In this document: one piece after another, positions 15,301-64,000 of the stretch
Numbering within the stretch: position 1 is the first letter of the stretch
Layout: the number at the start of each line of letters is the position of its first letter
Origin: Pelomyxa schiedti
Taxonomy: Eukaryota > Protista > Evosea
Assembly (NCBI GenBank): GCA_020536535.1
Contig: JAHLWZ010000291.1
Coordinates: forward strand, 131,524 to 195,523
DNA length: 64,000 nt
Reading direction: 5' to 3'
The notes under the pieces: model-generated
What the model was told of the DNA's origin: nothing
Database searches by the model: none
Seen by the model: only the letters and a program-made list of their open reading frames with translations
Program-made: the position numbers and the translations under genes

Positions 15301-18300
15301 GAAGCAATTCAACAGCTACAAGCGAGGGTTGAATTCCACACACAACATATTGGGATCCCGTGATGATTCCCCAATTCCCTCCTGGAGTAATGTGGTTGCT
15401 CTTAATTTGTACCCATGGATTTCAGACCATAAGGTAAGCGCAGGTGAGGACATTGTTGTCCCTGGTGCCTTCTACGCTGAACTGGCAACCCTTGCAGCAA
15501 GAGAGGTCTTCAAAACCAATCAAGTTCGAGTAGCCAACCTCACCTTCCACAGTCCTGTTGTGTTATCCCCAGACTCGTATGTAGAATTCAAGTGTGTAGT
15601 GACAAACTACCACTCTGCTTCCAAGAGTATGGGGTTTGAAGTTCATACCAAAGCGGAATTGGAGAAAGCCCTATCCAAGCGAGCATCTTGCACGATAGAA
15701 CTTGTCACTACCCCTGTTTCAGTACCGAATTACGATATCTCGGCACTCAAGACAACTTGTAAATTGCCAAAGGGTCATTCTGCTGTGTACAAGGCATTTT
15801 CAGAAATGGGACTGAACTACGGGCCACTCTTCTCTCCCATTTCGAAGATATTCGTCAATAATACAAGTTATGACGAAGCTGTGGGGGAGCTTACGTTCCG
15901 CAATAGTGTAATAGATTCCCTCGCACAAAACTCCGCTCTGCACCCAACTGTGTTGGACGGCTGTTTTCAGTGCATTATCGGAGGATTGCTGAGCTTACCT
16001 GATCTTCGGGGATCCAGCATTCTTCTTCCTGCCTCAGTTGGTGATCTTCAGATTCATGCTCCTCTTAGCGCTGCTGACCAGCACCTTGACTTTCAGGTCA
16101 ACATAAAGGATGAAAGTCTGCTTCCCCGGTACGGCACTGAGCAGGAAGGACGACTGTCTGAGGCGGTATTAGAAAACAGACACCTGGTGATGTTATGCAA
16201 ACACTATTCCGCACTTTTTTGCAAAAGTGTGGGCGACACAACGGACTGGATTCCAAGCAAGCAAAAATATATCAACTGGCATAGAAGTCTTTCAGAAGGT
16301 TTTGAAAGCAATGACGAGATTCTTGCGCATCCTTTCAGAGTCATGAGTATTGAAGCAGACCTGATAAGAAGCATAGGAAGCAGACTGGTCGAGGTTGTAA
16401 AGAATGCCGCCTCCCTTTTCGAAGATGACAAGCTTTCGAAATTTTACACCAACTCTGTTACCTGCAATATCAACACAACATCTTACCCTGTGCTGCGGAA
16501 ATTACTCCAGTGTGGGAAGAGAATCAGGATTCTGGAACTAGGTGGGGGTACAGGTGGTGCCACAAAGCAATTTTTACCTATATGCCAAGAGGCCTACACA
16601 AATGGCTGTGACGTGGAGTACATCTTCACAGATGTCTCACCATTCTTTGTGAGCAACGCAAAAGAAATGTTTGCGCACCTCCCTTTTGTACAGTGTACGA
16701 CTTTGGATATCTCAAAGCCGTTCCCAGAGGAAATTAGGGATGTAAATATCGTTATAGCTTTTGCAGTTGTCCACGTTGTCCCTGTAGTTGGAGTGATACT
16801 GTCACGGATTTTTGAGGCCCTATCTCCAGGCGGTATCCTCCTCCTCACTGAGCCAACCAGGAAGGATTTTGTATTTTTCAATTTTGTGTTTGGATTATTT
16901 GACCAATGGTGGGCAAATGACCCTTCAGACAGAGACCACGTTTGTTTAGACAGAGGGGAATGGACCAAACGCTTGTTAAGTGCAGGATTCTCTGACGTGA
17001 TTTCTGATACAGCAGGGCCAAAGGGCCTTGAGTTGGCCTTCTCATCATTTTTGGCTCAAAAACCAATCACAGCTACGCGGTCTTTTTCTTCTCTGTGGTG
17101 CCACACAAAAATCCGCGATTTTGTTCCCCAGAAATCATTGGTTGGGGATGCTGTTCTGATGGACGCGACAGGAAAGCCTCTAGTTTCCATCAAGAATTTG
17201 ACTTTGAGCAGCGTTTCAAACAAGCCAGCTAACGTTTCAATTGGGAAGGAAAAGTGGGTACCAATTCCGCTGAGTGCACCCGAAGCACTCGAAATTCCAT
17301 CCAAGAACGGAATTCTACTTCTACTGTCTTCCCAAGAAAGCCCACTGTCTACGGCACTTGCCCGCTCCATGAATTTGCATTATGAAAGAATAGTTGCAAT
17401 CCAACAGAGCCCCAGATACGAGATGATTGGGGATGTAATATCGTTAGATCCGTTGAATAAGGATCACTGGGTCCAACTATTTAAATCAGTTGGCAAATCT
17501 ATCCGTCATATCATTAATACATGGCCTGCAGCACACTACAAGAGTCAAGAAGTGACTAGTGAAGATTTGACGAGAATATCTTTAGAAACTACTATGCACA
17601 TCGCTCACATGTCTACTGCCCTGAGCCAAGCTGATATCTCATGTGGAGTGGTTGTGGTTACCCAGGGGGTCCATGATCCTCAGGAGAAAAGATGCCACGT
17701 ACCAGCAGTATCTCTGTTCTCCATAGGTGGTGTGGCACGTGTACTTTGCGCAGAAACATCACTGCAGGTTAAGGTTGTGGATCTTGATCCCTGCAATGAT
17801 ATCAGTGATTCTGTAGCCCAAATTGCTCAAGAAGTTGTTTATGGATGGAAGGTCCCATTTGATACTGAAGTGTGTATCAGCAATTCTCAGCGATTTTGTG
17901 AAAGAGTGAACTTCTGTGATTTCAAAGAGGGAGCTTCTCAGTTACAGCTGCAATCTGATCCTATTTCCACTGAAGAAGGATGGGAAGTGCAACTTGATGA
18001 TGCTAAGAACATCTCCTTTGTGAAAATTGATATTGGTAGGGCACTGGCACCAAACGAGGTCTGCACCGAGATGAAGTACATCGGCCTAAACTTCAAAGAT
18101 TTCTTGATCTCACAAGGCCTCCTTGGCGTGGAAAGAGCTACCGACCACTGGCACAAATACGGCAAGCTTGGCCTTGAGGGGTCGGGTGTAGTGAGGCGAG
18201 TAGGTAGTGCCGTCACCCATGTTAAACCCGGAGATGAAGTTATTGTGATGACCCGCTTGGGGACACTGTGTTCACACTTAATTTCCACCTTCTACTCCGT

Positions 18301-21300
18301 TTTTCCGAAGCCAGACACTTTGTCAGGAGAAGAGGCTTCTGTATCTATGCTCCCGGCCTGGACAGCTATATACTCCCTTGTGCATTGTGCAAAGGTGAGA
18401 AAAGGAGAATCTGTTTTTATTCACTCGGCCACTGGAGGAGTAGGCCTCGCCTTCATTCACCTAGCGAGGTCCCTAGGATTAAAAGTGTTCGCTACAGCTT
18501 CTACAGAAGCAAAAGTAAATTACCTCAGTGAAGTTCTTGGCTTAGAGCATGTTTTAATGGCGAAAGACCCAACCCTTGTCAAGAAAGTCATGGATTTGAC
18601 AGATGGTCGAGGTGTGGATGTTATAGTCAACCCCTACACTGGAACACTCGCAGAACAATCAGTGCAACTTCTTGCAAGTAACGGCCGTTTCATTCAGCTC
18701 ATCCCTGGACAACAATTACCAGTGAGTACACTATCAGAGAATCAGTCTCTCCACGTTGTTGAACTGTCAAGAATTCCAGACCAAGAGATATTTTATGAGC
18801 TTAGCCCGCAGATTCTCAAATTTGTGTCAACCATGTCCAGGGTTCTCCCAGTTAAAACTTATGATGTCTCCCACTTAAGAGATGCATTGGATCGATTTAC
18901 CAAACCAGATCACATTGGAAAAGTGGCCATATCTCTGGGTGACCATGCCGAAGTCGATATTAAACCCATGTGTACGGGCCACTCGTGGATGTGCCATTCC
19001 AACGCATCCTACCTTGTCTGTGGTGGTTTGAGTGGGTTTGGCTTTTCTGTTGCCACTTGGCTGTACTATCATGGAGCCAGAAATCTCGCACTGGCCTCAC
19101 GAGAAGGCAAGCCAAAAACTGCTTTTGAAAAACAAACAATCGAGTGGCTTAGAAGGCATGGGTGCAAAATTCTTTGCCTTGCACTCGATGTGTGCAACTA
19201 TGATTCAGCCTTGGCCACAATCAAAGTGATAGAAAAAGAGATGCCGCCAATTGAAGGAGTGTACCATAGTGCCACTTTACATGGTGATTGCTCTCTCTAC
19301 AACATCACCAATGACAAGTTTAGTCGTGTTTGCTTCCCCAAACTCATTGGCGCATGGAATCTCCATAAAGTAACGCTCTCACATCCGATCAAGAAATTTG
19401 TTATGTTTTCATCAGTTTCGTCTCTCTTTGGTAGAGGCGGGCAAGCACCATATGTGGCTGGAAACTATTTCATGGACAAGTTCGTGCAGTACAGGCACTA
19501 TCTTGGATTACCGGCTTTGTCGATCCAATGGGGTGCAATTGGCGAGTCTGGAGTTTTAACTACATCTCCCTGGATGGCAATGTCCTTGGCTGCTGATGGT
19601 GTTAACCAAGTGCCAGCTTCTCAGGCGCTGGACTGCCTATATTCCCTGCTCTCTTGCAAGGAATCTGACACACCTTTTGCGGTGTTCTCCATTGACATGA
19701 ACGTATTTTACACAAGCAACAAGGCTACTTTGAATTTAGCTCGCTTCTCTGAGAACCAATTTGTTGATGAAAGTGTTCCGAAACTTGTCTCAGGAAGTTC
19801 TTCTGTTTTTTCCCTATTAAGAGCACGTATTGCGAAGGCCCTTGGGATTGAAGAACAGACAATTGGAGAAGACATGGTTTTGGCTTCTCAGGGAATAGAC
19901 AGTCTTGTCGCTACAAGTTTGCGAACATGGATTATGTCTGAACTGGGTGTTAACATTTCTCCGTTGAAATTACTGAGTGGCGTTTCAGTGGGAGAATTGG
20001 CAGCAGAAATTTCGGGCTTGCGGGGCGAAGTGGCTTCAGACAGTTCCACGTCACCTCAACCTGCCTTAGGTGATGAACAACAAGCCCCTCCACAACGGAA
20101 AGAGTCTGCAGCTACTCCCGCGAAACAAGAAGATATCCTCCCCAAAGAGCTTGCTCCCAAAGTTCCGGCAGAAGTGACACCTTTAGAAGCAAGTCCCGCG
20201 GTAGTGAGCAGCTCTGATGCACCTCCAGCCAATTCCACTACTCACTCCCCACATCGGCGGGCCTTGTTCGAGTGGCCTGCCCCTCAAAAACGCCGTATTT
20301 CCTCCTTCACTGTTCAGTTGAACAAAATGAGGTCTGCTGGAATCGTTATGCACCACTTGGACATTGATCACTACGGTAAAAATAATAAAGTCACCTTCAG
20401 AAACGCCCCAGGGTCTTCGGGTGAGCTAAAGACAGCACTGTTGCTCCAGTCAAATAACTATCACGGTTTGTACAATGATCCAAGAATGATTACGGCCAGT
20501 CAAGAGAAGGCCCTTATCAGTTCTCTTGGCAGTCCCCTCCAAGCAGGAATTCTTCCAGATCAATCAGCACTGCAATCCGAAATTGCAGAATTTTGTCACT
20601 GTGAAGGAGCACTTATTACTCCATCTGGATTCACTGCTAATCTTACTCTTTTATCAGCGGTTGCTCAACCTGGTGACTACATTTTCAGTGACGCACTTAA
20701 CCATGCCTCAATAAACGACGGTTGCCGTCTATCCGGGGCCACAATTGTTATATACAAGCACATGGATTACTCCCATCTGGAGTCTCTCTTACAAGATACT
20801 CCACAAAACGCAGGCAAAGTTATAGTCACTGACGCAGTATTCAGCATGGAAGGCCACATTGCGAATCTACCTGTGCTAGACACACTCGCTCGGAAATATG
20901 ACTGTGTTCTTGTTCTTGACGAAGCTCATTCAATGGGAGTACTGGGGGCGACGGGTAGAGGCATTGAGGAACACTTCCACATGTTTGGATCTGCCCATTG
21001 GAAGACTGGAACTCTAAGTAAGGCCATATGTTCTCTAGGAGGCTATGTTGCTGGTGAGTTTTAGTTTTACACTTTAAGTGAGTTCTGACAATTTCACAAG
21101 GTCCAAAGGATGCTATTGATTGGCTGGTGTACAATTCACGCCCTTATGTATTCAGCACGGGAATATCTGACATGCAGTGTAAAATTGCTCGCACTGGCTT
21201 ACGGATTATCCGAGAAGAACCCTGGAGAGTTAAAATGATCCAAGATAAAGCATCAGCCTGGAAGAAGGCACTGGAGGATGCCGGCTTCGTAACTTTTGGC

Positions 21301-21885
21301 ACCAACACCCCGATTGTCCCCATACTCATAGGGGACGATGAGACATGCATCGCATTCTCTCGCAGGATGCTTGACTGCAATCTCTTCGCCACGCCTATCA
21401 TTTCTCGCTCGGGCTCAGTTCCCCCGGGGACAGCCAGAGTCCGCACCAACGTCAACTCACACCACAATATGACCGAGCTCCTCCGCGCTGCGCAAATTCT
21501 CAAGTCCATCAAAGCAGAGTTCAAGACTTTCCCTGGAGACCCAGCACCACTCGGGTCAATCCCGCCGGCAGTTCCCATGACATTTGACACCCCTGATGAG
21601 CCCTCCACGTCGCTCAACACCTCTTCGCACGATGATATCATCCACGAAGAAGAAGAAGAGCAAGAAAGCGGATTCATCGCAGACCCGCCGCAGGCTCAAC
21701 ACCTCAGGAGAAGAATACAAGAGCCGAGCGACGAGCCGATGGTAGCGAACTACGACCCGATAGCAGCGAAAATGTCGCAAATGGGATCTCTGGAGACCAC
21801 CACCAAACCACCGCACTTCCAGATCTCCTCCTCCACCAACGCGCGAGTACCTTCGTCGTGGCTTAACTGGTGTTCCGTAATGTAA
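12303..21885 (+). CDS. Highly reducing iterative type I polyketide synthase KS-AT-DH-cMT-ER-KR-ACP fused to a PLP-dependent alpha-oxoamine synthase (AONS/SPT/KBL family); ~3086 aa; exons 12303-12325, 12469-13222, 13311-13676, 13721-21053, 21101-21885
   Basis: KS DTACSGS / EAHGTGT / NIGHTE; AT FSGQG, GHSVG, AFHS; DH His in DHKV..VVPG and LDGCFQ; MT ILELGGGTGG; ER IHSATGGVG; KR GGLSGFG and YVAGN; ACP GIDSL; AOS SNNYHGL, NHASINDG, DAVFSMEG, DEAHSMG, GTLSKA. All four introns are GT-AG and preserve the frame (9261 nt total). Exon 1 is the least certain. Confidence 0.93.
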
Positions 21886-22639: not shown

Positions 22640-23879
22640 ATGATTCTCAAAGATTCACATCAGACACAGCTTTTTCTGGGACAATTTGGCGGAATAAAAA
22701 AAACACCAGACCGCCGAGACTGGGCGATGACTACGAAAATGACAGCGTTCCGGTCTGTTGATTATTTTATTTAGCCATTTACTAACTGGCTATTACAAAA
22801 ACAGATCAGTAACTACTTTCTGGGTTTTCCAGAGCTCTTTGGACAATTTCCAAAGAGAAAGTGGCTGAATTGCGTGCACTTGAGGAGTGTGTAGAACCTG
22901 TGAATGACTGGTTGGCCAACCTGCCAAAACGCTTTTTCACGCGACTTAACTGCAGCCTTAGTAGTGAAGCTAACCAGGAAGGGAGAACCAAATAACGTAC
23001 GGTGGAGACCTGAACATCTTGTTTAGCACTTTTGAAACCCATCATACAAGAAACTTTCAATCAGTTTATGCTTTTCCAACACCCAAAGAGGTTATTCGTT
23101 CTTGTACACACAAACATCGTGAGTAACCTTCAGTTTCCAGCCAAGGAGCCAAGGCAGAACTAGTTTTTGATCATGCCCTTGGAAACCTTTGGTCCGAGTT
23201 GGAGGATGTGGACTCGACTAAAGACCTATGAATACACAACACTTAGAACTATAGCATCTGAAGACACGAAAACGGTACTCAAAAGAACTGAATGTGGTGG
23301 CAAGAACCCCCCACTGAGAAATACGCTCGAGCGTATAATGCTCTACACAGGCACACCAATAAGCACTTGGTCAAGGTTCTCACCTCGAAATGGATCAGAT
23401 CAAACCAAGTTGAGTGCCAGCTGAGTCCTTGCTATGTGGACATTCCCAGAACTGAACACTACCTCGCAGCAGCTGTATACACAGTACTTGTAGCACTTGA
23501 GACAATGCATTCATGCAACGTGTACCACTGTGACATAAGATGGGTCAACACAATGCGTTCATGCAAGGAGGGCCACTGGATGCTTGTTGACCTTGAGTGG
23601 GCACAGGTTTCGAAGGAGGGAGTCCTCAAGTTGTATACAAATGGAGAAATGACCGGCCCCCAGCTGGTATTTAGGAAATTTAATGAAGGACGAAAGAGTG
23701 GAGAAGCTCCTTACACCAGCTGGAAGATCACTTGCAGACAAGTTGAAATCAGAGGAACCAAGATCTCCCATCCTTCATGCTTTTATTTCAAAGAATTTCC
23801 ATTCCTTCAGGAACACCACCAACCAGAGCAACCACTGGTACAGCCCATGACAGGTTCCCCCGTCTACCACCACAACTAA
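22640..23879 (+). CDS. Divergent kinase-like protein of the HxDIRWxN type (Crinkler/FunK1-like); 5' structure uncertain, possibly degenerate
   Basis: ORF 23292-23879 has VLVALETMHSCNVYHCDIRWVN...WMLVDLEWA (catalytic loop plus DxE metal motif). Upstream exons were not resolved with confidence. Confidence 0.5.
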
Positions 23880-39707: not shown

Positions 39708-40987
<1,280 letters not shown>

Positions 40988-46450: not shown

Positions 46451-46731
46451 ACAAACAAAAAAGAGAACACGGAGGAACAACCTTTGTAAATTACCCACTT
46501 CCAACCACTTGATGAGAACCCCAACCCCAAAAAGAATTCTTTTTGGCATTGCGCCAAGACTGATGTCAAGATGTCAATCCGTTCTCTGTCTTTTTTTGAA
46601 CTGATCGTTTTGTGAACATCAAAAAATTTCGCAGCCAACGGTTGAAGCCATCAAAATCAACAAAATTAAAAAAAACCTGCAACCCTTATCACCCAGAGCC
46701 TAGTGCAGCGACGTTATTGTCCATATCAACG

Positions 46732-49003
46732 ATGACGAGGTGGCCGATTTTGTTGTTGGTTGCTATTGTGGGAGTGAGACTGGCAGATTGCATTGCTTGC
46801 AACGAGGCCATTCAGATTCCCAGTTTCCCTTTCGGTTTCGAGGTAAAATTGCGTGTCCTTGCTTTTCTCCTTCATTTAGGCATTTGTGTGGGAACTTTCT
46901 GGTTAATAATGCTATTCCAGGGTGAATTACAGGCTGACACTAGCACTGTGGGACCTGGATGTGCTTGGAACGCTCCCACAGGTTACGAAGTCTGTATGGA
47001 ACTTGGGTTGTTTTCTCACAATTTCTTAGATTCCATGTGGTTTACCTTTCAAGGTGCTGATGAGTGGGTCATCTTCGAAGTTTTCAATGCTACGTTCAAC
47101 GTTGGTGTAGAGGTGAGCTTCAGTATTGCTCTTTGCTACTCTAACTTAGTTTTACAGATAGATTATGGCACGTGCTCGACTCTGACGTGCTCTGTTTGGC
47201 CTGATGACACTCCTCTTCCATACTTCCCTTTCTGGTCTGTGGCAGGAGTAACATATTACGTCATTGTCTATAATCCGGATGACACATACACCAGAGATAC
47301 AAGGCAATTCTTCTCTCTTGGAGTATACTTGTACGCCGACCAAAGCGCTTCATCAATCTATTTAGGAGGTAATTAGGTGGTAAAGGTTGCTTTGTTGTTA
47401 ATGCATTCCAGAGTGTGGAAATTGGTTAGTAGAACCAGGGGAGGAGTGTGATTCCGGTGAGGGCTGTGATGAAACTACGTGCCAATGCCAGGATGGGTAC
47501 TTTCCCACAAGACCTCCTTCTTACCAATGTGTCACACAAGGTAAGAGATCGCTAATTATCTAATGTGCAAAGTGTAAATGGTCTCCTTTAGACCTCTCTT
47601 GTTTCACATCAGGATCAATCGTTATGGGATCCTGGCTTCCATTTTTCTGGTACGCTCACACAAGTTCTTTTTCTTCTACGGAATCTTATTGTACAAATAC
47701 ACCGCTGTCCGGTATTTCTTACTGTGGTACATTTTATAAGTTGTTTTACCCTCATCAGGCACCTGGTTCTGGTATAACCAGTACATAGAAGATGGAACTA
47801 CTACAGAAACTCAGATAATTTTTTCAACCTGTAGTTATTACACAGAAGTAGACACCGTCCTGGAGGTAAACACTGCAGCCTATTTGTTTTATTAAAGGAA
47901 TACAGGTCTATACCGGCAGCTGTGCAACCGGATTCTCTTGTGTTGCTGTGGATGACGACACCACTGACACCAGCTGTCCTATAGGCTCCTCGAAGATTGA
48001 ATTGACGATAGACCCCTACAGTGACTATTGGATCCTTGTTTATGTAAATGAAGGTTCAGAGGGATGGTATGATTTCTCCATTGATACGCCATATTATGGA
48101 GGTAGTTGCGCTTTTCGTGTTTGAAAATCATTTTAATGAATTTCAGTTTGCCCAACTTCATATGTACAGCCTACTCTTGGTGAAGCTATTCCAGAGACTT
48201 TGACCTGGAACGATTGGCAAGATACATATGGTTGCTGGGACTACTTCAACAGCGGTATTGCTTCTATACACTCAACCCCTCTAACAAATCACAGGGAAGT
48301 GGTACTCCCTGGCTGATTATGAACCTGGCACATATGTTGTGTCTGCGTGCAGTTCCTCTTGCTCTGGGGATCTTCAAGTGTGGGTATGCATTTCCATTGC
48401 GTAGTTGTATCCCCCGATGTTCACCTAAAACAGCTCCTATCCGGCATGTGCATTCCAGATTACTGGTCCACTCCGGGCTGTGCATATCACACCTCCGATG
48501 ACCTGCAAGGTATGTGCGAAGACGGAGCAAGCTTCCAGTTTTTAGTGTACCCTGATGCGGACGCCTGGATCCTTGTTTCTATGTAAAGCTATTCAACTGT
48601 TCCGAGAGACCTTAACAAATTCAGGGATGATCCCCCATGCGAGTACACACTTACTGTCTCTCCCGTTTCTCAGCCTAACCAGCCATCGGGAAATGGAACT
48701 GCGGTCGCAATGGGAATATTATTCGCCCTGTCCACAATCGGACTTTTGCTTGCCATAGCAGGCTTTGTAGTCTATATTAGATTATCACCGAATCAGAAGC
48801 AGGCATTGTAAGTTCCACAAAAGAAACACTCGATTACTTACCAAACAACACAGGAGCCTTCGCCTGCACGGCACCCCAGTGATTGGTGGATTCTTCCCTC
48901 CAGGAACAGCAATACCTGGAGGTACATCATGTGTACCTGAGGCCACTCTCACAGACGCAACAAAGTATGTAACAGAAAGTTTCAATCTTCCAAACCACAG
49001 CTA
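46732..49003 (+). CDS. Cys-rich type I membrane/surface protein with a DUF4215-like CGN..GEECD repeat, multi-exon; 3' end approximate
   Basis: Signal peptide MTRWPILLLVAIVGVRLADC; ECGNWLVEPGEECDSGEGCDETTCQC; TM AVAMGILFALSTIGLLLAIAGFVVYI at ~48700-48780. Confidence 0.6.
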
Positions 49004-49270: not shown

Positions 49271-50638
49271 TTACGAAACAGTAGAAACATAGTACTTGCA
49301 TTTGTTGGTTATTGTGAATATCACTGTTCCAGACGCGGCATCAATTACCTTAATCAGGTTTGGGTCAGAATACTCACCAGGCTCCTCCACCAGCAGACCC
49401 TTTCCCACAGCTGATGTTCCATGTCGGGCCACCGCGTGTTTATAGAGCAGCTTCCCCGGGTCCTTAAGGCTGTACACCTCCCACACTTTCGGATAGCAGT
49501 CGCGCTTCAGTACGTAAAGCGGCCCACCAATATGCTGCAGGAAGGCGTCTATTCCAAGATCGGTCTGCTTGCCAGTGGTGAGACACACCAGTGTTCTATC
49601 CTTCAGTGTTGCGTAGGCCTTTCCTTCCCAGAACATTTGGCGCCACATGTGTTTGATGATCGGGAGGGTGCTTTCTCTCGCCACCATCTTCCTCTGTGCC
49701 AGGGTGGCCGGCATGTCGACTGTCAGCATGAGGCCGTCCACGTGACCCGACCTGAGAAGCATAGAATCGCACTCTAGAGTAGAACTCTCACCAATGGCCA
49801 TGCTAATATCGCCACCCGGCAAAGCTATCCCGCCGACCTTGGCTATCCCACAAGCGCCATCACCTCCGGCAACAGAAGCAGCCATCTCGGCCTCAATGCG
49901 ATCAAAGTTCCACAGAGTCATGCCGAATTCCTGCGAATCTTCCGGCACCGCGGCGGCCCACCTCCTGCTGCAACACCAAGGCGTGGCCAGTCCCAGGCGC
50001 TCCGCCAGTTTGACAACAGCCTTGGTTCTGATGTCCATTACGCAGAGACTGAAGGAATCATCGACGGGCCGGGTCGTCGCGAGTGCAAACCTGTCGGGCC
50101 TAGGCCCGACCCATTCCATGAATAGAAGGCCGCCAAAGTCGACGGCGACGGGGAGACTCACGAGGCCCAGGGTCGGTGAAATCGAGAACATCAAGTTCAC
50201 CTCGCTGCAGCAGCTCTTCTTGCATAGGCCATCGAAACCCCCAAGAGAGAGCTCTTCTCCCTCGCCGTCGTCCACGTCGTCGGCGTAGGGGGAGTCGTAC
50301 GCTCTGGACTCGAGTGACACGACGTGGTTATGGGACGGAAACACGATCCACTCGCGGCCCATGTGGGACAGAAGCTGGGGCGTGAGGGACCTGACGTGGG
50401 AAGAGCCTCCGCACCGTCCCACAATTACCCCTGCGCCCAGGGAAACAAACTGGCTCCGGGCGTCCGTGCGCACAGCGGCCACGTCGAACGAAGCCGGGCC
50501 CGCACCCCCCGGCGTTGGGCCAAAAAGACTGTAACGAGGATCGAGGAATTCAAAGTCAGAGTCTGGCCCGGCGTCGATGGGGAATGTGTCGTTGTTGACG
50601 TTCGTGTCTTTTGTGCTTCCTGTGGTAGGACAGTTCAT
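49271..50638 (-). CDS. Intronless 455-aa hypothetical protein (lineage-specific; possibly beta-rich C-terminal part)
   Basis: Single uninterrupted GC-rich ORF with ATG and stop, flanked by AT-rich DNA; no domain recognised. Confidence 0.7.
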   Translation of the reverse strand: MNCPTTGSTKDTNVNNDTFPIDAGPDSDFEFLDPRYSLFGPTPGGAGPASFDVAAVRTDARSQFVSLGAGVIVGRCGGSSHVRSLTPQLLSHMGREWIVFPSHNHVVSLESRAYDSPYADDVDDGEGEELSLGGFDGLCKKSCCSEVNLMFSISPTLGLVSLPVAVDFGGLLFMEWVGPRPDRFALATTRPVDDSFSLCVMDIRTKAVVKLAERLGLATPWCCSRRWAAAVPEDSQEFGMTLWNFDRIEAEMAASVAGGDGACGIAKVGGIALPGGDISMAIGESSTLECDSMLLRSGHVDGLMLTVDMPATLAQRKMVARESTLPIIKHMWRQMFWEGKAYATLKDRTLVCLTTGKQTDLGIDAFLQHIGGPLYVLKRDCYPKVWEVYSLKDPGKLLYKHAVARHGTSAVGKGLLVEEPGEYSDPNLIKVIDAASGTVIFTITNKCKYYVSTVS

Positions 50639-53086: not shown

Positions 53087-56000
53087 TCACAACAAGGAAG
53101 AGACACTGTGGAATTGGAGCGTGACAGTTACGTACTTGGGTGGGGTGGGAGGCGGGGCGGCAGGGGGTTGGTCAGGAGACACGAGTACGAAGTTGCAACC
53201 TATTGTGTTCGCAAAGTTGGTTTGGTGACTGCTTTTGGGTGTTTACCTGGCGGTGTGAGGAGCTCCGCTTCTGTCAATCCAAACCAAGAAAAGCCAGTGA
53301 TGTCATACGCAAGAGGTGAACGAACTTCCAGCAGCAACCCCCTCTGTCCTTGCATTGCAGTAAACGCCACCGCCACAGCCCTGTTCCTTGAAATGCTTGA
53401 GAATCCGTACCAGCATATATTGGTTGAGCGGCTTTGTGATAAGTAGGTCTCCCACGATTCCGGCAGCGTTCCAAACCCGCGGTAGGCTACTACGTCAGTC
53501 ACAGGCTTGAGCTTCGCGAGTGCGGTGAGGAGCAGCTTTGTGTATGGCTTCCATGGAGCCAATGATGCATTCGTTCTGTGTGGATCCCTCAGTGCCCAGT
53601 TCAGTGCTGCAAATACTTTGGGCTTATTTTTCGTGTAAAGAACAATAGCTGCAGCTTCTTCTGTTGTCATTGGCTCACCAACAAAGGAACCATTTCCAGA
53701 TGCCCTCGTGACCAGACCCTCCTCTATGACCTTGGTCCTGCAAAGAGCCACGGCATCAGCGAGGTACTCTGCTGTGCACCCAACTTCAGAGTGCAAACCG
53801 AGCAATGCAGCGCCGAGGGAAACTGTGGGCACACCCTGCAGAAGGTTCACAAGTGGCGGAAGAACGATGGCGTCACTCAGACCGGCATCAATCATGATGG
53901 TGGCAAGCGGTGGGGCCTGAAGCTGCTCACTTATCTCCGGACTGCAAACGATAAAAACGGAGCCATCACCGCCGTCCTTCACAATGCCAAAAGATGGGTC
54001 CGTATCAATGCGACTCATGCAAAGTTGTGTCAGGATGCTTTTAAGCACTGATTGCGATTCGTCAGTTCTTTTGAACCTGCCATTCGGGGAAAAAAAAATG
54101 GGTGAAGCAAGTACGCTTAGCCAGAGAGTTAAAAAAAAACACACTTGTTGAGCTTCTTTGCGTGAACATGGACGCCCCTCCACACTGCGTCAAATGTTTC
54201 CCCATAAAAATCATAGTAAACATGCGCCTTCAACTCTGGGATTCCATAAACAAACCCATTCGCACTGGCCAACCCAAGAAGTTTGCTTGACACAGCTAGT
54301 GTCAGAGAATCCCTGCTTGTGGGTTGCGTTGGATTCCACCTTTTGAGTATGGCGGAAAGTTGGCCCGTTTTTGCTGTCACAAGAATGCTGGCATTATCAA
54401 TGAGCTTTCTGGAAAGTTCCTTTCCCACCCTGTTGCCTTCCTTCACGGGGTCAATGCACCTGAGGCACTCTTTGGAGTGTGACTCCTTCCATTCCGTGTC
54501 ATACGTGCATACAGCTTCTCTGATCGCATTGGCAGCAGGGAGTATTAAAAAACCAACATAGAGCGTAAGGGGTATCACAATCTGCCATATTGGGAATCTT
54601 GATTCATCACATGATATGCAGTCGACAAGGTTGTTGTTGATCAGACGAAGGTGCCTCGACAGTGGTTTGAAGAAATTGGAAACAAACTGTCTCCACATCG
54701 GCTTCAGAGCGGCCCACAGATATCGGTTGAATGTAAACTCTGTGCTCCTTTCAACAGCCTGAGGCCAACTGAGCAGAATGCCCTTGCTTTGGCTTGCTTC
54801 GAAGACAGCTTCCTTGGCAATGACATCTATTTTGACCAAAGTGTCTCTCGCTGCCTGCTGCACCAAATTCGAGCATTGGGATATGATACCATTTTCCCCT
54901 CTTTTCAGCTGCTGGACAAAACATTTGCACGTCGCGATTCCGTGTTGAAGTTCTCCAAAAGAGATCATTGTGTCAGCATACGTTCCACATGGACCGCATA
55001 TCCCCTCACAGCATCTCAAAATCGTGGTGTCCAGTGTCCGTCCAATAAGTGCTTGCAATCTTCTTTCAAAAATTTGGGACAGCTCTGCGTACTTTGGTTG
55101 GTTTGTGACTTCTTTCCCGCAACGTATTCTGAGAAAACGAAGGGCAGAGAGTTCAGCCCAATAAGGGGAGGTTGTCCTGACAGGGTAGTGTAGCAGAATG
55201 TCTGGGGCAAGAGCTTTCAGTTCAGAATAAAACGCATCAAGCACCATGTCAGGAGGTTCTTGGTTAACCTCCACTTCCTCTTCAAAAAGGGTGTCCACCT
55301 TATTCCCAACGAAAAGAATGGGCACAGACTTTTGAATCCCAGTCTTGAGCAGCGTCTTGATGGCATCAACGTCTTCCCCTTTGACCGCCCCAGAGTTGAT
55401 ATCAAGAATGTAAATTGCACCAACAACGGTTTTCAAGGCGTTCATTATCACCGCATCCAACTCCTTGTTCTCACCAAGGCCTGGAAGGTCAATGAAATCA
55501 AATCCTGAAACCGGAAGCTTGGTTTGTGCTGCATCTTCTTTGCCAATGGCATTCGTTTCTCTCTTTGCAACATGGGGGAGGTACACCTCCACAACCGAAG
55601 ACGCCCCACTTACCCTTTGGTCCGCACTCAATGCCACGGCCTTATGTGGCAGCTCTCCGGTGAATTGGATCGGACCCTCGGTGACTGTTCCATCAGGGTT
55701 TTTGATGGTGTACTCCCTCGTATCTCCTGCCTTGATCACGGTCACACGACTTGTGCACTTTAGCTTCCGCGAAGGTAGCACAATATCTCCCAGTATTGCA
55801 TTGCAGAGCGTGCTTTTCCCAGCCTTCATGTCACCCAGAACTGGACTGGCAATTAGAGGTTCCAGAATCTTTTCACTTGATGTAACATACTGGCAATGGC
55901 AGCTGCTGGCCAAGGATACTCAGCAGGTTCACTACTCTTTTCTTGTGTGTGAGTCGTTGGAAAGAAAAAATAAAAGAGGTACATTGCATAGAACACGTGT

Positions 56001-56746
56001 GGCAGAGTGTATTTTTGTCAGTTCGGCTTTGGTCTGTGCAAAGCTTTTAATCGTTGTTTCTAGGGACCCCTTCTTCTCTGGTGCTTCGTCTTCATATGGC
56101 ATCACTGTCTGCCTTCTTTCCGCTCCTAAATCTGCTGCTGTTGCCACCCTTGGATCGAAGACTTCCTTTTTTAGTTCCTTGAACCTCCTGAGCCACTGTG
56201 AGGTCTCTTGCTCAGACGTTGATTGGAAGTCCCAGATAGCTTTTAAGAATGAGTCCAAGATGAAAAATTACATGACCCTGGCAGACCAGTTTTTGTTGTG
56301 AGGTAAAACCCATCGAGTTTGTAGGTGGTGAAGTCCGCAGCCAATCCAACAGAGATCATTTCCTCCACGGGTATTTCTCCCTAAAATATGTCACTGCATT
56401 CTTTCTTTGTTTTTTTTAAGAAGGAGATAGGGATACGAATCGCCAATGGAGTGCAACGTCGCTCAACGTTGTAAATAAACGCATTCTGCCAGTTGCTGCC
56501 AGGTACCCTTAAGTATTGTGAACATCACATAGTGCAAACGATAAAACAACCAGAGAAAAAGAATGTTCTGTTGCAGGCAGTATTGCTTGTTGCAGAAGTG
56601 GCAGTGCCAATTTCCTCTGGAACATCTCTCTCCGTTTCAATAGAACCTCCCCTCTCGACTACCACATTGGAAGTGGTAGTGGTGCCTTGTTCAAACACTC
56701 CCGACAAATTAGTTTTATCAGGTATAACGACTTGTCGCATCTTCAT
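53087..56746 (-). CDS. PH-like + dynamin-like GTPase + kinase N-lobe remnant + NAD:arginine ADP-ribosyltransferase fusion protein (paralogue A), about 8 exons; start approximate
   Basis: G1 GDMKAGKST, G2 CTSRVT, G3 DLPG, G4 NKVD; intron 54077-54144 joins this in frame to an ART exon with EAAAIVLYT, LNWALR, AYRG, GFSSIS, EAELLTPPG; N-terminal exons give STSEQETSQWLRRF. Confidence 0.8.
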
Positions 56747-57600
56747 TCTCTTTCAGATAATGGTATATATATAAAAAAGGTTCCAACCACTCCTTTCCAC
56801 AAAAAGCCTCTCTCTGGGTGGTAAATGGCAAACTGAAGCATATATGTGTCATGATACAAAATGTGTTGGCCAGAAAAATAGTTTCCACGCCTGCAAGAAA
56901 ATAAGTAGTGCAGGAAGTACACGTTAAACTTCACGTGTGTTTAGATAGCGGGTATAGCCTCCATAGTGGTTTCCCATCATGTACTTGGAGGAAAGCCGAC
57001 GTAACATGGTGAGTAGTAGTTAGGTGGACAACCAAAGCCAATACGATTTCACCCGCAGCAAGTGTGGATGTTGTGGCGTCGAATTCGAATGTAACCGCCT
57101 GTGCCATCGGTTGTTGTACAAAAATCGAACTTTCGTGTGGTTAGTGTGTTGTTGGAAGTTCCTTAGCGCTCTACCACTTCGCCCAGCAACGTCTAAAACC
57201 AAAAACGACCTTCGAAACCAACTTTTCCAATACCTACTTGGTTGTATGGTTTTCCAAACTAAAAACTTGTATCGGGAAGCCACCTTTTTTCCAAAAGTCA
57301 AGTTGTGATGGCGGCGGTGACGTTTGAATTCAACGGTATAACACACGCACCGTGTGAAGGTGAAACTGTTCTGGTTTTAGTTCGGTTGCCAGTGTCTTGG
57401 TCTGTCTGGAAACAGATACTCTGGCGTCGGCGGCATCCAGCACGTTGTAGGCTGTACTCGCTGCCTCAATACGATAGGTGCTTTACATATAACCTCTTCT
57501 TTTTGTTGTAACCCAAACAGAGAGCACAATTGCTTTTCTGGCCGACATTCTCTGTTTCCTGACACATACTGGGTTCAGTTTGCGATTTATCACCGAGACA

Positions 57601-60600
57601 ATGGATTCTTGTGGAAAGGACCGGTTCGTTCCACAAGAATCCTGCATCACTTCTTTTTGTTACAACTTCCTTCTTAAACCATTCAAGGAACAAAAAGTTG
57701 TTGTGCCGACCAAAACCAATGTGGTGGGGGTATTTGGACCAAGTGTTACCACATCCAATTCAACTGACGAGATGGAAGGCTCATTTAACGGGCCAAATGA
57801 GGTAGAGGCAGAAGCGCCTGAGGAAACTGGCATCCCCACTTCAATGGTAGATACGGCTTGCAATAGAACCTTCTTTTTCTCAGGTTGTTTTCGTGTATCC
57901 ACTACCCAATATTTATGATGCTTCAGGGTATCTAAATGGCTGGTTTACAACGTTGAGCGACATTTCCCTCCGTTGGCGATTTGTAACCAGTCCCTTTTTT
58001 TCAAAAACAAAGTCAGTGACAAACATCACAGGGAGAAATACTCGTCGAGGAAATAGCCTATGTTGGGCTGACTGCAGATGTCACCGAATACAAACTTGAT
58101 TCATTTTACATCACAACAAAAGCGAGTGGTATCAATTTTCATCTTCTTTTTTCCCTCATTCTGAAAAGGAATTTGGGACTTCCAATCGATTTCGGAGCAA
58201 GAGACCTCACAGTGGCTCAAGAAGTTCAAGGAATTAAAGAAGCCTGTGTTTGACCCCAGAGTCACTGCATCAGATGCGGCGGTAGAAAGAAGGAGGGTGG
58301 AGATTCATTATGATGAAGAAGCAGAGAAGAAGGTGTCCTTGGAAGCCATGATTGAAAACTTTGCGCAGACCAAATCTGAACTGTCGGCAATACATTCTGT
58401 CACACATGACACATGTAATGTAAGCCCCTCCTTTTTTTTTCCCCAGAACTGGCTAGTGCCACTCACTGCACTCCATATACTCAAAAGAGTGGTCCCAAGT
58501 ATCTGTGGCCAGCAGCCTCTGTTGCAAGTGTGTATTAATTGAAAAGATTCTGTGACCCCTAATCACCTCACAGTTCTGGGAGACATGAAGGCCGGGAAAA
58601 GCACACTCTGCAACGCAATACTGGGAAACATCACTTTGCCCTCCAGAAGGCTGAGGTGCACAAGCCGGGTGACAATCATCAAGGCAGGAGCCGCAAGGGA
58701 GTACGTCATCCAGAACTCTGGCGGGGTGATCACTGAGGGCCCGATCCCGTTCACTGGTGAGCTGCCACCAACTGCTGTGGCGTTGCCCTCAGACCAAAGG
58801 CTGAAGGGTGCCTCGTTGATTGTGGAGGTGCACCTCCCTGTCGAGCCTGGAGCACGCCTTCCAGTTCCTGGATTCGATTTTGTTGACCTTCCAGGCCTCG
58901 GTGAGAGTAAAGCGCTCGATGCCATAGTTATGAACGCCCTGAAAAAAGTCGTTGGTGTGATTTACATCCTTGATGTCACTTCTGGAGCGGTCAAGCAGCA
59001 GGATGTTGATGCAATACAGACGTTGCTCAAGTCAGGGATTCACAAGTCTGTTCCCATTCTTTTCGTTGGGAACAAGGTGGACCGGCTAGACAACGAAGAG
59101 GAGGAGAACCAAGAGAGTCCTAAGACTGTGCTTGATGCATTTTACGCTGACCTGAAAGCTCTTGTTCCTGACCTGCTGGCACGTCATCCCGATAGGGAGA
59201 CTTCCCCTTATTGGGCTGAACTCTCTGCCCTGAAGTGCCTTGCGATACGTCGTGGGAAAACCGTCAAAAACCAACAAAAGCATAAGGAGCTGTTTGATAG
59301 TTTTGGTAGGAGGTTGCAGGGGCTGATTGGACGCACTCTGAATACCACGATTCTGGGAGGCTGTGAGGAAATATGTGGCCCCTGTGGAATGTATGCCGAC
59401 ACCATCATCTCTTTTGGAGAAGTCCAACACGGAATCTCCACATGCCGCAGCTTTGTCGAGCAGCTGAAAGGCAAGGAAGAAGAAATAATACGCCAGTGCT
59501 CTGCTTTGGTGCAGCAGGCAACAAGAGACACTTTGGATGACATGAACGTCATCGCCAAAGATGCTGTCACACAAGCAAACAAACACAAGTATATTCTTAT
59601 CAGTTGGCGCCAGGCCATGGAAGAAAGCACTGAGCATGCCTTCAATCAACATCTGTGGGCCACTCTGAAACCAAAGTGGAGACAGTTCGTTGCCCATTTC
59701 TTCAAACCTCTCTCAAGGCACCTTCATTTGGTCAACAACAACGTGGTCGACTCCATATCATGTGACGAATCAAGAATCCCATTATGGCAGATTGTGATAC
59801 CCTTGGCGTTGTACGTTGGAATTGCCGTGATTCCTCTTACCAACGCGATCAGAGAAGCTGCGTGCACGTATGACAATGAATGGAAGGAGTCGTACTCCAA
59901 AGAGTGCCTCAAGTGCATCAACCCTGCGAAGGAAGGCAACAGAGTGGCGAAGGAGCTTGCCAGGAAGCTCATTGAGAACGCCGGCATTCTTGTTAAAGCA
60001 AAAGCGGACCAGCTTGCTGCCATAATGGAAGGGTGCAACCCCGCCCAAACCATAGGCACAGATGCTCTGACAGTTCTCGCATCAAGCAAACTGCTTGGGC
60101 TGGCAAGTGCCAACGGGTTTGTTCATGGAATCCCAGAGCTGAAGGCACAGGTCTGCTCTGATTTTTATGGTGATACATTTGAGGCAGTGTGGAGAGGTGT
60201 TCCTGTTCACGCAAAGCGGCTTCACAAGTATGGTTTTCCGACCGTATCTCCACCTTACTAAATTCTTCCTCGCATAGGTTCAGCCCGGAAACAGGACCCT
60301 CAGTGCTGAAAAGCATCCTGACACAACTGTGCACAAGCCGCATTGACATGCACCCATCTTTCGGCATTGTGAAGAACCACAGTGATGGTAACATATTTGT
60401 CATCTGCAGTCCAGAGATAAGTCCTCAGCTGCAGTCCCCGTCACTCGAGGCCATCATGAATGACGTTGGTCTGAACGACGCCGTGGTCCTCCCACCGCTT
60501 GGGAACATCCTTCAGAGCGTGTCCATGGTCTCCCTTGACGAGGCTCTGCGGGGTTTGCACCCCACCATTGGGTGCACAGAGGAGTGCCTGACAAACGCCA

Positions 60601-61261
60601 TTGTACTTTGCAGGACCAAAGTAATCGATGAGGGTCTTGTCACGAGGGCATGCGGCAATGGCTCCTTTGTTGGTGAGCCACTGACAACAGAAGAGGCAGC
60701 AGCCATTGTTCTTTACACAAGGGACAGCCCACAAGTGTTTGCAGCAATGAACTTGGCGCTGAGGAATCCCCACAGAACGAGTGCCTCACTGGAGCAATGG
60801 AAGCCATACACAAAGCTGCTCCTCACCGCACTCACAAAGCTCAAGCCCGTGATAGATACCACAGCCTATCGGGGTTATGGAACACTGCCTGAATCGTGGC
60901 AGACAAAGTTCTCACCACACCGTGAAACCAAGATATGCTGGTATGGATTCTCAAGCATATCCCGGAGCAGGGTAATTGCTGCCGAGTTTGCTGCAATGCA
61001 AGGACAGAGGGGATTGCTGCTGGAAGTTCGAGCACCCCTTGCGTATGACATCACCGGCTTCTCTTGGTTTGGATTGACAGAAGCGGAGCTCCTCACACCG
61101 CCAGGTAAGAATAAAGTTAGTTTAAGTTTCCAAACCAGCTCAACCACAAACCACAAACCACAGGATGCAACTTCACACCCCTGTCGCTTGACGACTCGTC
61201 ACCCAAATATGTCTCTGCCACAATCCAATTCCACAGTTACTCTTCCTTGTTGTATGAGTAG
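57601..61261 (+). CDS. PH-like + dynamin-like GTPase + kinase N-lobe remnant + NAD:arginine ADP-ribosyltransferase fusion protein (paralogue B), ~1100 aa, about 8 exons; start approximate
   Basis: Same motifs and intron positions as paralogue A. Frame-preserving introns include 57884-57926, 57983-58031, 58420-58487, 58528-58573 and 60228-60277. Confidence 0.8.
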
Positions 61262-61650: not shown

Positions 61651-64000
61651 CTAGGTGCGCTTTTTTGTGGAAGCGGGAAGAAAACCACTTAGAAGAGTGG
61701 TGAGGGGTCCTGGTTGTCCTTGTTGGAATTGAAATGACTGCATAAGGTCATCATAAACGCCTCTGCTTGCGCATCCTCCTGTTGTTGGTGAAGTGAATGA
61801 CGTAGAGTTGCGAACCGCCTCCAATTCCTGAAGTGCTTCCAGGTACTCCTCGTCGTCATCACCTCCTTCCTCTTCATCCTGACTGACACCTTCACCTCCC
61901 ATTTCATTATCCTCATCATCAGCTTCTTCTTCACCTTGTCGAGTGTAAAGTTTGTGCTGGGAAAGAATGGTACTGTTCGACATACCTTTGAGTGCTCTTT
62001 CCAGTATTTTCTTCACTCGGTCTGCATTGATATCGTCACTGCTGTGGGACCTGTGTAGTAAAGACACCACAAAAAGGAGAGGAACAAAGAAACAAACACG
62101 AAAAAATCCAATTTTTAACTGAAGGCACAATGTAAATAAATAAAGGAAAAGCAGAGGGGGCATACTGCTTTTGGGAGTCAGTATCTGCGCCGTACTCATC
62201 CTCATTGCCCTCGCTATCACTCCCTCCACCGATTCCCTGAAAGTCGGACTTGGAATTCAAAAATCTGCTCAGGGAAGATTCTAGGGAAGATGCTGGTTCG
62301 GCAGCACTCTCAGCAGTATGATCTTTCATCTGGAATTGTGCCAGATCTCGTTCAAGGTTGGAGAACATTGCAGCTGGTTCAGATTCCAACCATTCATCAC
62401 TGTTATATCAAGTTGTTATTTTTGACTTGAAATTATGACTGGGTGGTTGCCTGTCAGGTGGCGGTAATGAGTCTGCAGGAGGAAAATTTTCATTGCTTAT
62501 ATCAGGGTTTGCTGAGCAGATAGCATCAACTTCAGAGGCAAAAGTATGGGCAATGTGCCGAGCTATCAGCCTGGGAAGGGTCACATCAAACATGAGCTGA
62601 GGGAAAATACATGGGGCTTGTGGGTGGTGTCCTGGCTGCGGATCTCCTGCCGCACTGGTACGCAAGCTCAAAACCACATGCCTTCATGAACGGATAAGCA
62701 TAAAAGACTTTAGTTTTAGTTAAGTGCTTACAAGTTTACATCCAAGGATTGCTGGGGTGAATAAAATATCATCTGGAGCTGGTAACTGGCCAAAAGGGGC
62801 AGGCCGCACGATCTGCTGACTGTGTAACATTGCATAGTGACTGTGTGTCATACTAATACGAACAACCACCTCACGTCCACTACTCTTATTATTGGTGCTG
62901 AGGTCCCCTCCACCAGGGAGAAACCTCTCCATCAGGGTGCACACCTATTTTCCGTTGAATACAGGGAACTTGCTTCTGATGAGAACGTACCCTCCACTCC
63001 TCCGGCGTATGTTCGCACAGAGCGTGTATGGCAAGAGATATAAACTGTGGGTCACGTCTAAGGACAAGAGCACAGTGTAGAGGGAGAAGGGCATTGGTGC
63101 AATGTAAATTCTGTCTGAAATGAGTGATCGGAGATTGAGCTTCTGGGGATTTTTGTGGATTGGGGGTGCAGAAACATTCTAGGCGTGAAGAGATTGCAGA
63201 CTGAATGGGTGGTGAGGCTCTTGTGTCGACTGGTTGGGTGCAAAGGATTCTGAGTGCGGTACTAACATTAAGTACTGAGGGAATGACAGGCAGGAGGGCA
63301 GGAGTGTGTGGTAAAGGAATTAAGTGAACCATGCCATTCCGAATGAATACCTGCACATTTTCTTCAATTTTTTACAGAAGATATTCACGAACTCCGAAAA
63401 CAGTACACATACTCTGTTCTCAATCAAGCCTGATGGGGCCTCTTCAACCCACAGGGGCAGAACTTCAGCCGCCTCAATCAACATAAACTCACCATCTCCA
63501 TCCTGCACACTTATGGGATATTAACTCCAAAGAACAAAACCAGGAACAAGGGCGGGGAAAAAAAAAAAACACAAGGGAACGGAGTTCATACGTTGCAGCT
63601 ACGACTACGTCGGGCATTTCCAGAGTCAACCGCCGCACGACGTGGACAACGAACCACTCGTCGTCGGGGCACTCCCCGAACGACACGCACCCCTCCACCG
63701 TCCCACACTCCCAGTCCCCTGCCCCCTCGCCCTCGCCCTCGCCCCGCTGTGTCTCCCTCTCCCTCTCCCTCTCCTTCCTCCCGCGGTCTCCCCCCTGGTC
63801 CCCGCCGGCCTCGCCCCCGGTGCTGGTGGGGCTCGCGGGAGGGGCAGGGCGGGGGGAGGGAGCGAGCAGGGCGAGGGTGGGCGGCTCCTTGTGCCACAGG
63901 TACCCTCCCCACAGGCTCTCCAGGTGGCTGGCGACGGCCTCCGCCCGGCTCCTCCGCTGCTGGGCTTCGGATGCAGAGGAGGAGCCGGGGCCCTGCTGTT
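61651..64000 (-). CDS. ECD: Ecdysoneless/SGT1 (ECD) family protein, multi-exon; 5' end outside the window
   Basis: GCVSFGECPDDEWFVV, DGDGEFMLIEAAEVLPLWV, ENRV|FIRNGMVHLIP, LRRDPQFISLAIHA, acidic C-terminus ending QPGPLTTLL. Confidence 0.85.

Follow-up and report, generated by a model that had tools for sequence, protein, structure and literature searches.

Several described systems resemble parts of the gene considered here. DSTYK is a human disease gene with unexplained lysosome and vacuole phenotypes. In ROCO proteins (LRRK1/2), a G domain gates a C-terminal kinase, and among ADP-ribosyltransferases (ARTs) of the R-S-E class, the E-x-E motif is the mark of arginine specificity. DSTYK is reported on late endosomes/lysosomes and on vacuole membranes, compartments that become enlarged upon its overexpression (PMC6981171). 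The gene under study is Pelo_3837 (gene A; 57308..61261, + strand, 10 exons, 1163 amino acids (aa)) of the amoeba Pelomyxa schiedti, lying in a window of 64,000 nt, that is the whole stretch of contig JAHLWZ010000291.1 that was analysed and to which all positions refer. Its product joins in one chain a dynamin-like GTPase, a helical stalk, a predicted remnant of a kinase N-lobe and an ART. It would work in a manner parallel to ROCO proteins, unlike which it is dynamin-class and not ROC-COR (Pfam Roc reaches only E 0.11 on the Pelo_3837 P-loop).

The gene model was assembled from GT/AG splice sites, with exons at 57308-57477, 57521-57623, 57688-57883, 57927-57982, 58032-58128, 58169-58419, 58488-58527, 58574-60227, 60278-61104 and 61164-61261 (all +), and its translation equals, letter for letter, the database protein Pelo_3837 (P0001) of P. 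schiedti. All nine introns are GT-AG and measure 40-68 nt, and each is matched by a same-phase intron in the neighbouring paralog Pelo_3836 (gene B); for the whole genome, the reported figures are 7.43 introns per gene and a GT-AG share of 98.41% (PMC8887013). The GTPase exon is joined to the ART exon by intron 8 (60228-60277, +; 50 nt, GT-AG, phase 2), which leads to a stop codon when left unspliced and places GTPase and ART in frame when removed. Its counterpart in gene B has the same position and phase, a diverged sequence and a length of 68 nt. An initial annotation of this DNA had proposed this splicing event, and the in-frame model and the intron common to the paralog bear it out; the gene end that it gave coincides with a stop codon at 61259-61261. 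The gene start that it set at 57601 lies too far towards the 3' end: the paralog conserves two further exons upstream, in another frame, and lacks an ATG at that position. The ATG at 57601 was rejected on these grounds and the true ATG placed at 57308, about 290 nt further upstream.

The first enzyme of the chain is a TRAFAC G domain of the dynamin superfamily and of the BDLP/mitofusin class (aa ~299-550; 58488..59310, +). The 572-codon open frame of the GTPase exon matches Pfam Dynamin_N with 44.7-46.2 bits (curated cut-off 27), and the four motifs that had been announced as intact are all located: G1 GDMKAGKS (aa 307; 58579-58602), the G2 Thr (aa 334; 58660-58662), G3 DLPG (aa 409; 58885-58896) and G4 NKVD (aa 471; 59071-59082), all on the + strand. 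The top PDB sequence match of the domain is Nostoc BDLP (2j68). Structures were compared using an alignment-based AlphaFold2 (AF2) model with a mean pLDDT of 72, the single-sequence AlphaFold run having given an unusable pLDDT of 32; the model matches MFN2 with Z 25.4 (root-mean-square deviation (rmsd) 3.2, 302 residues aligned) and BDLP with Z 20.2, in agreement with the BDLP/mitofusin-like layout of G domain, stalk and paddle that had been proposed. The stalk (aa ~551-815; 59311..60105, +) is helical in the AF2 model, belongs to the part beyond the G domain that aligns with DSTYK by HHalign, and carries a DSTYK-like end motif. It includes the putative paddle (aa 706-724; 59776-59832, +), a hydrophobic segment already pointed out in the initial annotation and the most hydrophobic of the protein (KD19 2.15), with an amphipathic helix just before it. 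The G-domain fold, helical bundle and hydrophobic stalk tip are features in common with Nostoc BDLP, MFN1/MFN2/Fzo1 and IniA. In the Pfam scan of Pelo_3837, no match to Dynamin-like_hel_bact or Fzo_mitofusin was found, and NCBIfam and PADLOC scans returned sub-threshold GTPase matches only.

The C-terminal enzyme is an R-S-E class (ARTC-like) ADP-ribosyltransferase domain (aa ~911-1160; 60441..61252, +). The ART exon matches Pfam ART with 26.6 bits (cut-off 22.3), and the model of this C-terminus, on whose ART fold the proposal had been staked beforehand, matches rat ART2.2 (1gxy) with Z 17.9 (rmsd 3.2, 209 residues, pLDDT mostly over 85), and HopU1 and Tre1 with Z 17.8; a PDB search using the ART exon as a single sequence gave no match. 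The likeness to ART2.2, HopU1, Tre1, Vis and ExoS extends to the N-terminal helical part of the fold (Z 13-18). The expected catalytic motifs are all in place: AYRG at aa 1052 with R1054 (60870-60872), FSSIS at aa 1080 with S1082 (60954-60956), and E-A-E at aa 1124-1126 with E1124 (61080-61082) and E1126 (61086-61088), all on the + strand. Of 87 aligned ART rows, 84, 87, 84 and 86, respectively, keep these four residues, as do all eight family members. As in R-S-E mono-ADP-ribosyltransferases, aromatic-R, aliphatic-R and E-x-E motifs can be recognised, the first being Y1053-R1054 and the last E1124-A-E1126; an aromatic-R in beta1 and a [QE]-x-E on the ARTT loop are the features given for R-S-E ARTs (PMC6829252), and the Pelo_3837 domain has both. 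Unlike ART2.2, HopU1, Tre1, Vis and ExoS, this ART is predicted to be intracellular, is fused to a GTPase, and has Ile as the middle residue of its STS motif. Among the matches listed, its nearest sequence relatives are fused to leucine-rich repeat, ARM, MORN, UCH, tyrosine-phosphatase, zinc-finger or kinase domains, and one comes from Entosiphon. The ART being such a promiscuous protist module, widespread and with many fusion partners, a toxin is not implied, and the label of toxin domain given initially was overstated.

The family to which Pelo_3837 belongs was delimited by a phmmer scan of 1.84 billion representatives, which gave 956 matches at E 0.001 or better, the best 150 of which were considered; 102 of the 149 non-self sequences among them were scanned with Pfam, and our own G and ART profiles were run on all 150. 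A G domain only was found in 63, an ART only in 81, and both in one chain in six (self included), the five non-self chains being confirmed by Pfam. They comprise a transcript protein of Pelomyxa sp. JSP (39% identity over query aa 220-1160), the P. schiedti paralog Pelo_3428, a transcript protein of Pyxidicula operculata, and two further records. The equivalent of the intron 8 junction is crossed by four of six JSP isoform proteins, and the other two stop inside the stalk. Four more sequences (P0014, P0030, P0039 and P0115) resemble, by eye, truncated members that extend as far as where the ART helices begin. Most members of the family are 20-26% identical to one another; word-indexed protein searches recovered the three P. 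schiedti copies or little more, and the family surfaced in the full phmmer scan only. An Atlas search with the whole of Pelo_3837 gave no match. DNA-pattern scans picked up no relative among viral contigs or in prokaryotic genomes, and in metagenomes they detected nothing but unrelated GTPases that lack an ART; as these scans are insensitive, the absence is weak evidence.

The architecture search recommended in the initial annotation has in this way yielded the same one-chain fusion in the transcriptomes of Pelomyxa sp. JSP and Pyxidicula operculata. These transcripts support the architecture in relatives, not for gene A itself. With the gene model, the Pfam matches to both enzymes and the transcript proteins of relatives taken together, it is nearly certain that the arrangement of GTPase, stalk and ART in one chain, as first proposed, is real.

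Selection across the chain can be followed by comparing gene A with gene B (53087..57107, -), its head-to-head paralog with the same 10-exon layout and domains and 68% amino acid identity (73.8% by blastn across 3.4 kb, inverted). The two differ with dS 0.70 and an overall dN/dS of 0.31 (95% confidence interval 0.26-0.36), and dN/dS lies between 0.23 and 0.44 in each of nine segments, including the ART (0.33) and the kinase stub described below (0.28), which indicates that every part is kept as protein. The paralogs are under purifying, not diversifying, selection overall.

Which known family provides the body of this chain? DSTYK-named proteins of Nematostella, Lingula, Ptychodera, Saccoglossus and Tubulanus are among the phmmer matches listed, and Dynamin_N is combined with a kinase in seven of a set of 51 Pfam-scanned proteins from the best 150 of 956 matches. 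In HHalign comparisons, the profile of the ART-fusion family aligns with the DSTYK profile at 100% probability along 543 columns that begin at G1 and reach kinase subdomain II. When the G domain is removed, the match to DSTYK is still 88.7% (E 2.6e-6, 288 columns), versus E 0.096-0.62 for four groups of bacterial-type dynamin-like proteins (DLPs) and 0.11 for Branchiostoma DLP-kinases used as controls. A G-domain tree of 66 rows (LG+G4; 13 of 79 rows, namely near-identical isoforms, fragments and multi-G-domain rows, having been dropped) places all eight DLP-ART rows, five named DSTYKs and eight others in one clade with support 99/97. The group of DLP-ART and DSTYK holds (88/97) in a second LG+G4 tree with an Fzo1-like row added; this tree and a mixture-model tree are subsets of 27 and 42 rows, respectively. 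The added row (P0164), labelled Fzo1-like from its sequence layout and the sole one of this kind in the trees, falls outside the DLP-ART/DSTYK clade in both the 42- and 27-row trees.

Within this clade, the C-terminal part varies. In P0075, the DSTYK-clade GTPase is followed by a whole degenerate kinase and then by leucine-rich repeats, making another C-terminal variant. A DSTYK-like protein, P0092, has intact G motifs, a strongly hydrophobic paddle (KD19 2.61) and an intact kinase, and branches outside the named animal DSTYKs. Pelo_3837 is like DSTYK in its Dynamin_N G domain with G1-G4, in a stalk that is about as long and likewise ends in a 'WK' helix, and in its kinase subdomains I-II, with 824-886 residues after G1 in the ART fusions versus 796-845 in DSTYK. 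It is unlike DSTYK in that the kinase C-lobe (HRD, DFG, APE) is replaced by an R-S-E ART, in its more hydrophobic paddle, and in a Pelomyxa-specific N-terminal beta-sandwich and PH-like segment. Lacking a complete kinase, it is a likely variant of the DSTYK clade and not DSTYK proper. It differs from BDLP-type groups in carrying a C-terminal enzyme, and similarity to them was not detected past the G domain. This profile and tree evidence argues with moderate strength that the Pelo_3837 body is of DSTYK type rather than of bacterial or mitofusin type. The BDLP/mitofusin-like G domain recognised in the initial annotation stands, and the closest family, DSTYK, had been missed.

The link with DSTYK extends into a short segment between stalk and ART (aa ~826-899; 60136..60407, +, spanning intron 8), a predicted kinase N-lobe stub. 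In the AF2 model, its secondary structure follows the order beta1-beta2-beta3-alphaC-beta4-beta5 of a kinase N-lobe, and by profile it aligns with kinase subdomains I-II of DSTYK, Lys852 (60214-60216) being aligned with the subdomain II lysine and the Gly-rich loop being degenerate. The end of the stalk together with the stub scores 79.7% against DSTYK in HHalign. After the stub, neither a Pkinase match nor in-register HRD, DFG and APE were found in Pelo_3837, whereas four kinase-bearing relatives have them, and there is no room for a kinase C-lobe, since the ART fold starts at about aa 911, after only about 75 N-lobe residues. The segment is thus best read as a predicted remnant of a kinase N-lobe whose catalytic C-lobe is gone. 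Judged by eye, most members of the family have the stub in an equivalent position, which suggests a single replacement event. Overall, an origin from DSTYK by a swap of kinase for ART appears quite probable. The G domain, stalk, paddle and ART of the initial layout are borne out; this stub and a beta-sandwich at aa 2-96 had been overlooked.

A number of observations weigh against this interpretation or parts of it. The quick mixture-model tree does not separate the clade from three outsiders, and in the approximately unbiased (AU) test, a grouping of the protist rows with the Fzo1-like row and without DSTYK is not rejected (p 0.096). HHalign scores against DSTYK are weak for the stalk alone (9.3%) and for the stub alone (28.2%), and no fold search or Pfam scan matched the stub to a kinase; fold searches list no kinase, PH or CBM because the GTPase fills their lists. 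The ART tree shows no single fusion origin, with five changes. In the seven DLP-ART proteins scanned, the paddle reaches KD19 1.2-2.5 and is strongly hydrophobic in some members only, and the stalk tip is modelled poorly (pLDDT under 50). The STS motif (pattern S-[TS]-[STQ]) reads S1082-I1083-S1084, a middle position that also varies in ART relatives (T in 39, C in 22 and A in 11 of 87 rows), the first Ser being present in all 87. Lastly, the activity and location proposed below for Pelo_3837 are predictions from sequence and models.

Taken together, we propose that the whole chain may be an enzyme that is switched by GTP, assembles on membranes and attaches ADP-ribose to arginines of proteins on endo-phagosomal or microbe-containing vacuoles, a prediction to which we give a probability of about 0.5. 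A single open reading frame encodes the G domain, stalk, paddle, stub and ART, and its body is, with moderate strength from profiles and tree, of DSTYK type. By analogy with BDLP and mitofusins, the paddle would insert in a membrane, and GTP binding would lead to G-G dimerisation and to oligomerisation or polymerisation. This assembly would cluster or release the ART, placed where DSTYK bears its kinase, so that the output mark would be ADP-ribose instead of phosphate, the N-lobe stub staying as a hinge or spacer. The target membrane may be that of a food or symbiont vacuole, as suggested by the lysosomal location of DSTYK and by the phagotrophic, symbiont-bearing life of Pelomyxa, and the mark would alter trafficking or disable the cargo. 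P. schiedti is an amoeba dependent on three endosymbionts. One symbiont of P. schiedti is reported to live in host vesicles (PMC10579272). The idea of a GTPase-gated ADP-ribosylating enzyme, put forward in the initial annotation, is supported as a prediction. On a wider and more tentative view, DSTYK could be what animals retain of an ancient eukaryotic clade of mitofusin-like GTPases whose C-terminal enzymes are interchangeable. In an undescribed protist branch of this clade, an arginine ART would have taken the place of the kinase C-lobe, making a GTP-gated, self-assembling machine for ADP-ribosylation that would coat food or symbiont vacuoles and control microbial cargo.

Could the chain instead, in a strong form of the immunity idea of the initial annotation, be a dedicated effector of cell-autonomous immunity or suicide, whose GTPase senses an invader membrane, oligomerises and frees an ART or NADase toxic enough to kill either the invader or the cell itself? 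The existence of at least four P. schiedti paralogs, the patchy occurrence of the fusion among the listed matches, the variety of C-terminal modules in the clade (kinase, pseudokinase with leucine-rich repeats in P0075, stub with ART) and the presence of HopU1, Tre1 and ExoS among the structural kin would all fit, as would the cell death that DSTYK overexpression is reported to induce (PMC9573974) and the activity of dynamin-class GTPases in immunity (bioRxiv 10.64898/2026.10.19.760177). However, the purifying selection acts on every segment, the copy number is small, Pelo_3837 has no sensor repeats, and the PADLOC scan gave no system match beyond a weak LeoBC (E 0.0014). ARTs of this type are, moreover, common signalling-style fusion modules, and the mono-ARTs of eukaryotes are presented in a review as acting by post-translational modification (PMC3417536), so that we regard an effector of this kind as unlikely.

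A housekeeping function is likewise doubtful: in this case, Pelo_3837 would be a membrane-fusion or vacuole-biogenesis GTPase like animal DSTYK, with an ART of modest regulatory or self-modifying role and no link with microbes. The lysosome and vacuole role of DSTYK (PMC6981171), the purifying selection, and the presence of the fusion in two distant amoebozoan lineages are what such a function would lead one to expect, but no fusion from a model amoeba occurs among the 30 matches whose source was looked up, and core trafficking genes do not usually diverge so fast (20-26% identity between most members) or show such a turnover of paralogs. Considerably less credible is the view that a DLP of bacterial type, or a mitofusin, was joined independently to a stray piece of kinase and to an ART, with a likeness to DSTYK that would come only from convergence or deep homology. 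The G1 motif and the top PDB match with Nostoc BDLP, the AU test (p 0.096) and the weak score of the stalk alone speak for it; the similarity to DSTYK past the G domain is nevertheless continuous and specific, and absent in bacterial groups, and the DSTYK clade is recovered in both LG+G4 trees. Finally, although the assembly derives from amplified single cells (PMC8887013) and the annotation mistakenly fuses a neighbouring copy to ecdysoneless (P0003), a prediction that merged two adjacent genes, or a chimera from whole-genome amplification, can practically be dismissed, the latter being rejected outright, as the paralogs are just 74% identical, have the joining intron in common and show selection across the junction, which transcript-derived proteins of other amoebae also span.

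The N-terminal region of Pelo_3837 is made of two further parts. The first is a beta-sandwich (aa ~2-96, exons 1-3; 57311..57702, +), all-beta in the AF2 model with pLDDT mostly 73-87; only the three close copies in P. schiedti show it. It has no match in Pfam, including the glycan-binding families CBM20 and CBM48, and the leads obtained are weak, with Atlas CBM_20/AMPK1_CBM clusters at 0.77-0.78, below the 0.9 level, and a CEACAM Ig match at E 0.11; this match and one to uS13, both at E about 0.1, are taken as chance or fold-level only. The second part is the PH-like module proposed initially (aa ~150-235, exons 3-6; 57862..58251, +), with 76% identity between paralogs and dN/dS 0.23. Searches of this segment in Pfam and PDB gave no match, and AlphaFold leaves aa 100-224 unmodelled, predicting a helix with a Trp at 217-234; none of the tools supports the PH assignment, the fit to the PH consensus, a seven-strand sandwich whose C-terminal helix bears a conserved Trp, being by eye only. 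The last helix of the segment matches the start of the Pelomyxa sp. JSP protein. Since neither part occurs in Pelo_3428 or in the Pyxidicula protein, both are lineage add-ons.

Between the divergent ATGs of gene B (57107, -) and gene A (57308, +) lie 200 nt (57108..57307), likely their shared promoter. Compared with the model built here, that of Pelo_3836 in the database lacks 16 aa inside the G domain (55579-55626 region, -, exon 8); it likely contains a false in-frame intron, because the missing stretch is conserved in the other copies. An ecdysoneless/SGT1 gene adjoins the locus (61651-63520, -). A third P. schiedti copy was found by protein search on a 7.1-kb contig, and P. schiedti has at least four paralogs. 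This contig bears a second ecdysoneless copy and a gene B copy, without gene A, annotated as a single fused protein of 1725 aa (P0003) with 84% identity to Pelo_3836; a segmental duplicate or a haplotype, wrongly joined in the gene model, is the probable explanation.

Elsewhere in the window, this anaerobic amoeba encodes a highly reducing type I polyketide synthase (12443-21885, +; KS, AT, DH, methyltransferase, ER, KR, ACP), the last domain of which is a PLP-dependent aminotransferase of class I/II; this suggests a long-chain amino-ketone or sphingoid-like product, which may be released by amino-acid condensation. An actin gene is recognised from its translation (39842-40987, +), a short divergent kinase-like frame (23292-23879, +) has a Pkinase match of E 2e-5, under the cut-off, and two long open frames (46600-47376, +, and 49271-50638, -) show no Pfam match.

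Eukaryotic dynamin-like GTPases are reportedly treated as immune effectors by Nicastro et al. 2023, according to a text citing that work, which could list the same architecture. In the literature found, judged mainly from abstracts and with incomplete coverage, neither a dynamin-like GTPase-ART fusion nor DSTYK as a dynamin-like GTPase is described, in line with the initial view that the architecture was undescribed. The fusion goes unmentioned in the available parts of reviews on Dictyostelium dynamins (PMC8565484), on Mx/DSP evolution (PMC11789081) and on RIP kinases (PMC9573974), and in those of a review of conflict systems (PMC3417536) and of a ParA preprint (bioRxiv 10.64898/2026.10.19.760177). 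The connection between DSTYK and dynamins is already implicit in database names, some DSTYKs being tagged Dynamin_N.

If the proposed reading is true, Pelo_3837 and its relatives would be, as far as found, the first case of a dynamin-class GTPase wired directly to an ADP-ribosyltransferase, and a clean natural output swap, from phosphate to ADP-ribose, on one membrane-remodelling scaffold. They would also sharpen into a testable idea what is thought of DSTYK, the N-terminal two thirds of which would be a BDLP/mitofusin-like GTPase body, and the protist relatives with intact G motifs would be tractable enzymes to address this question. For the biology of protists, the fusion would be a candidate tool of vacuole or symbiont control in Pelomyxa.

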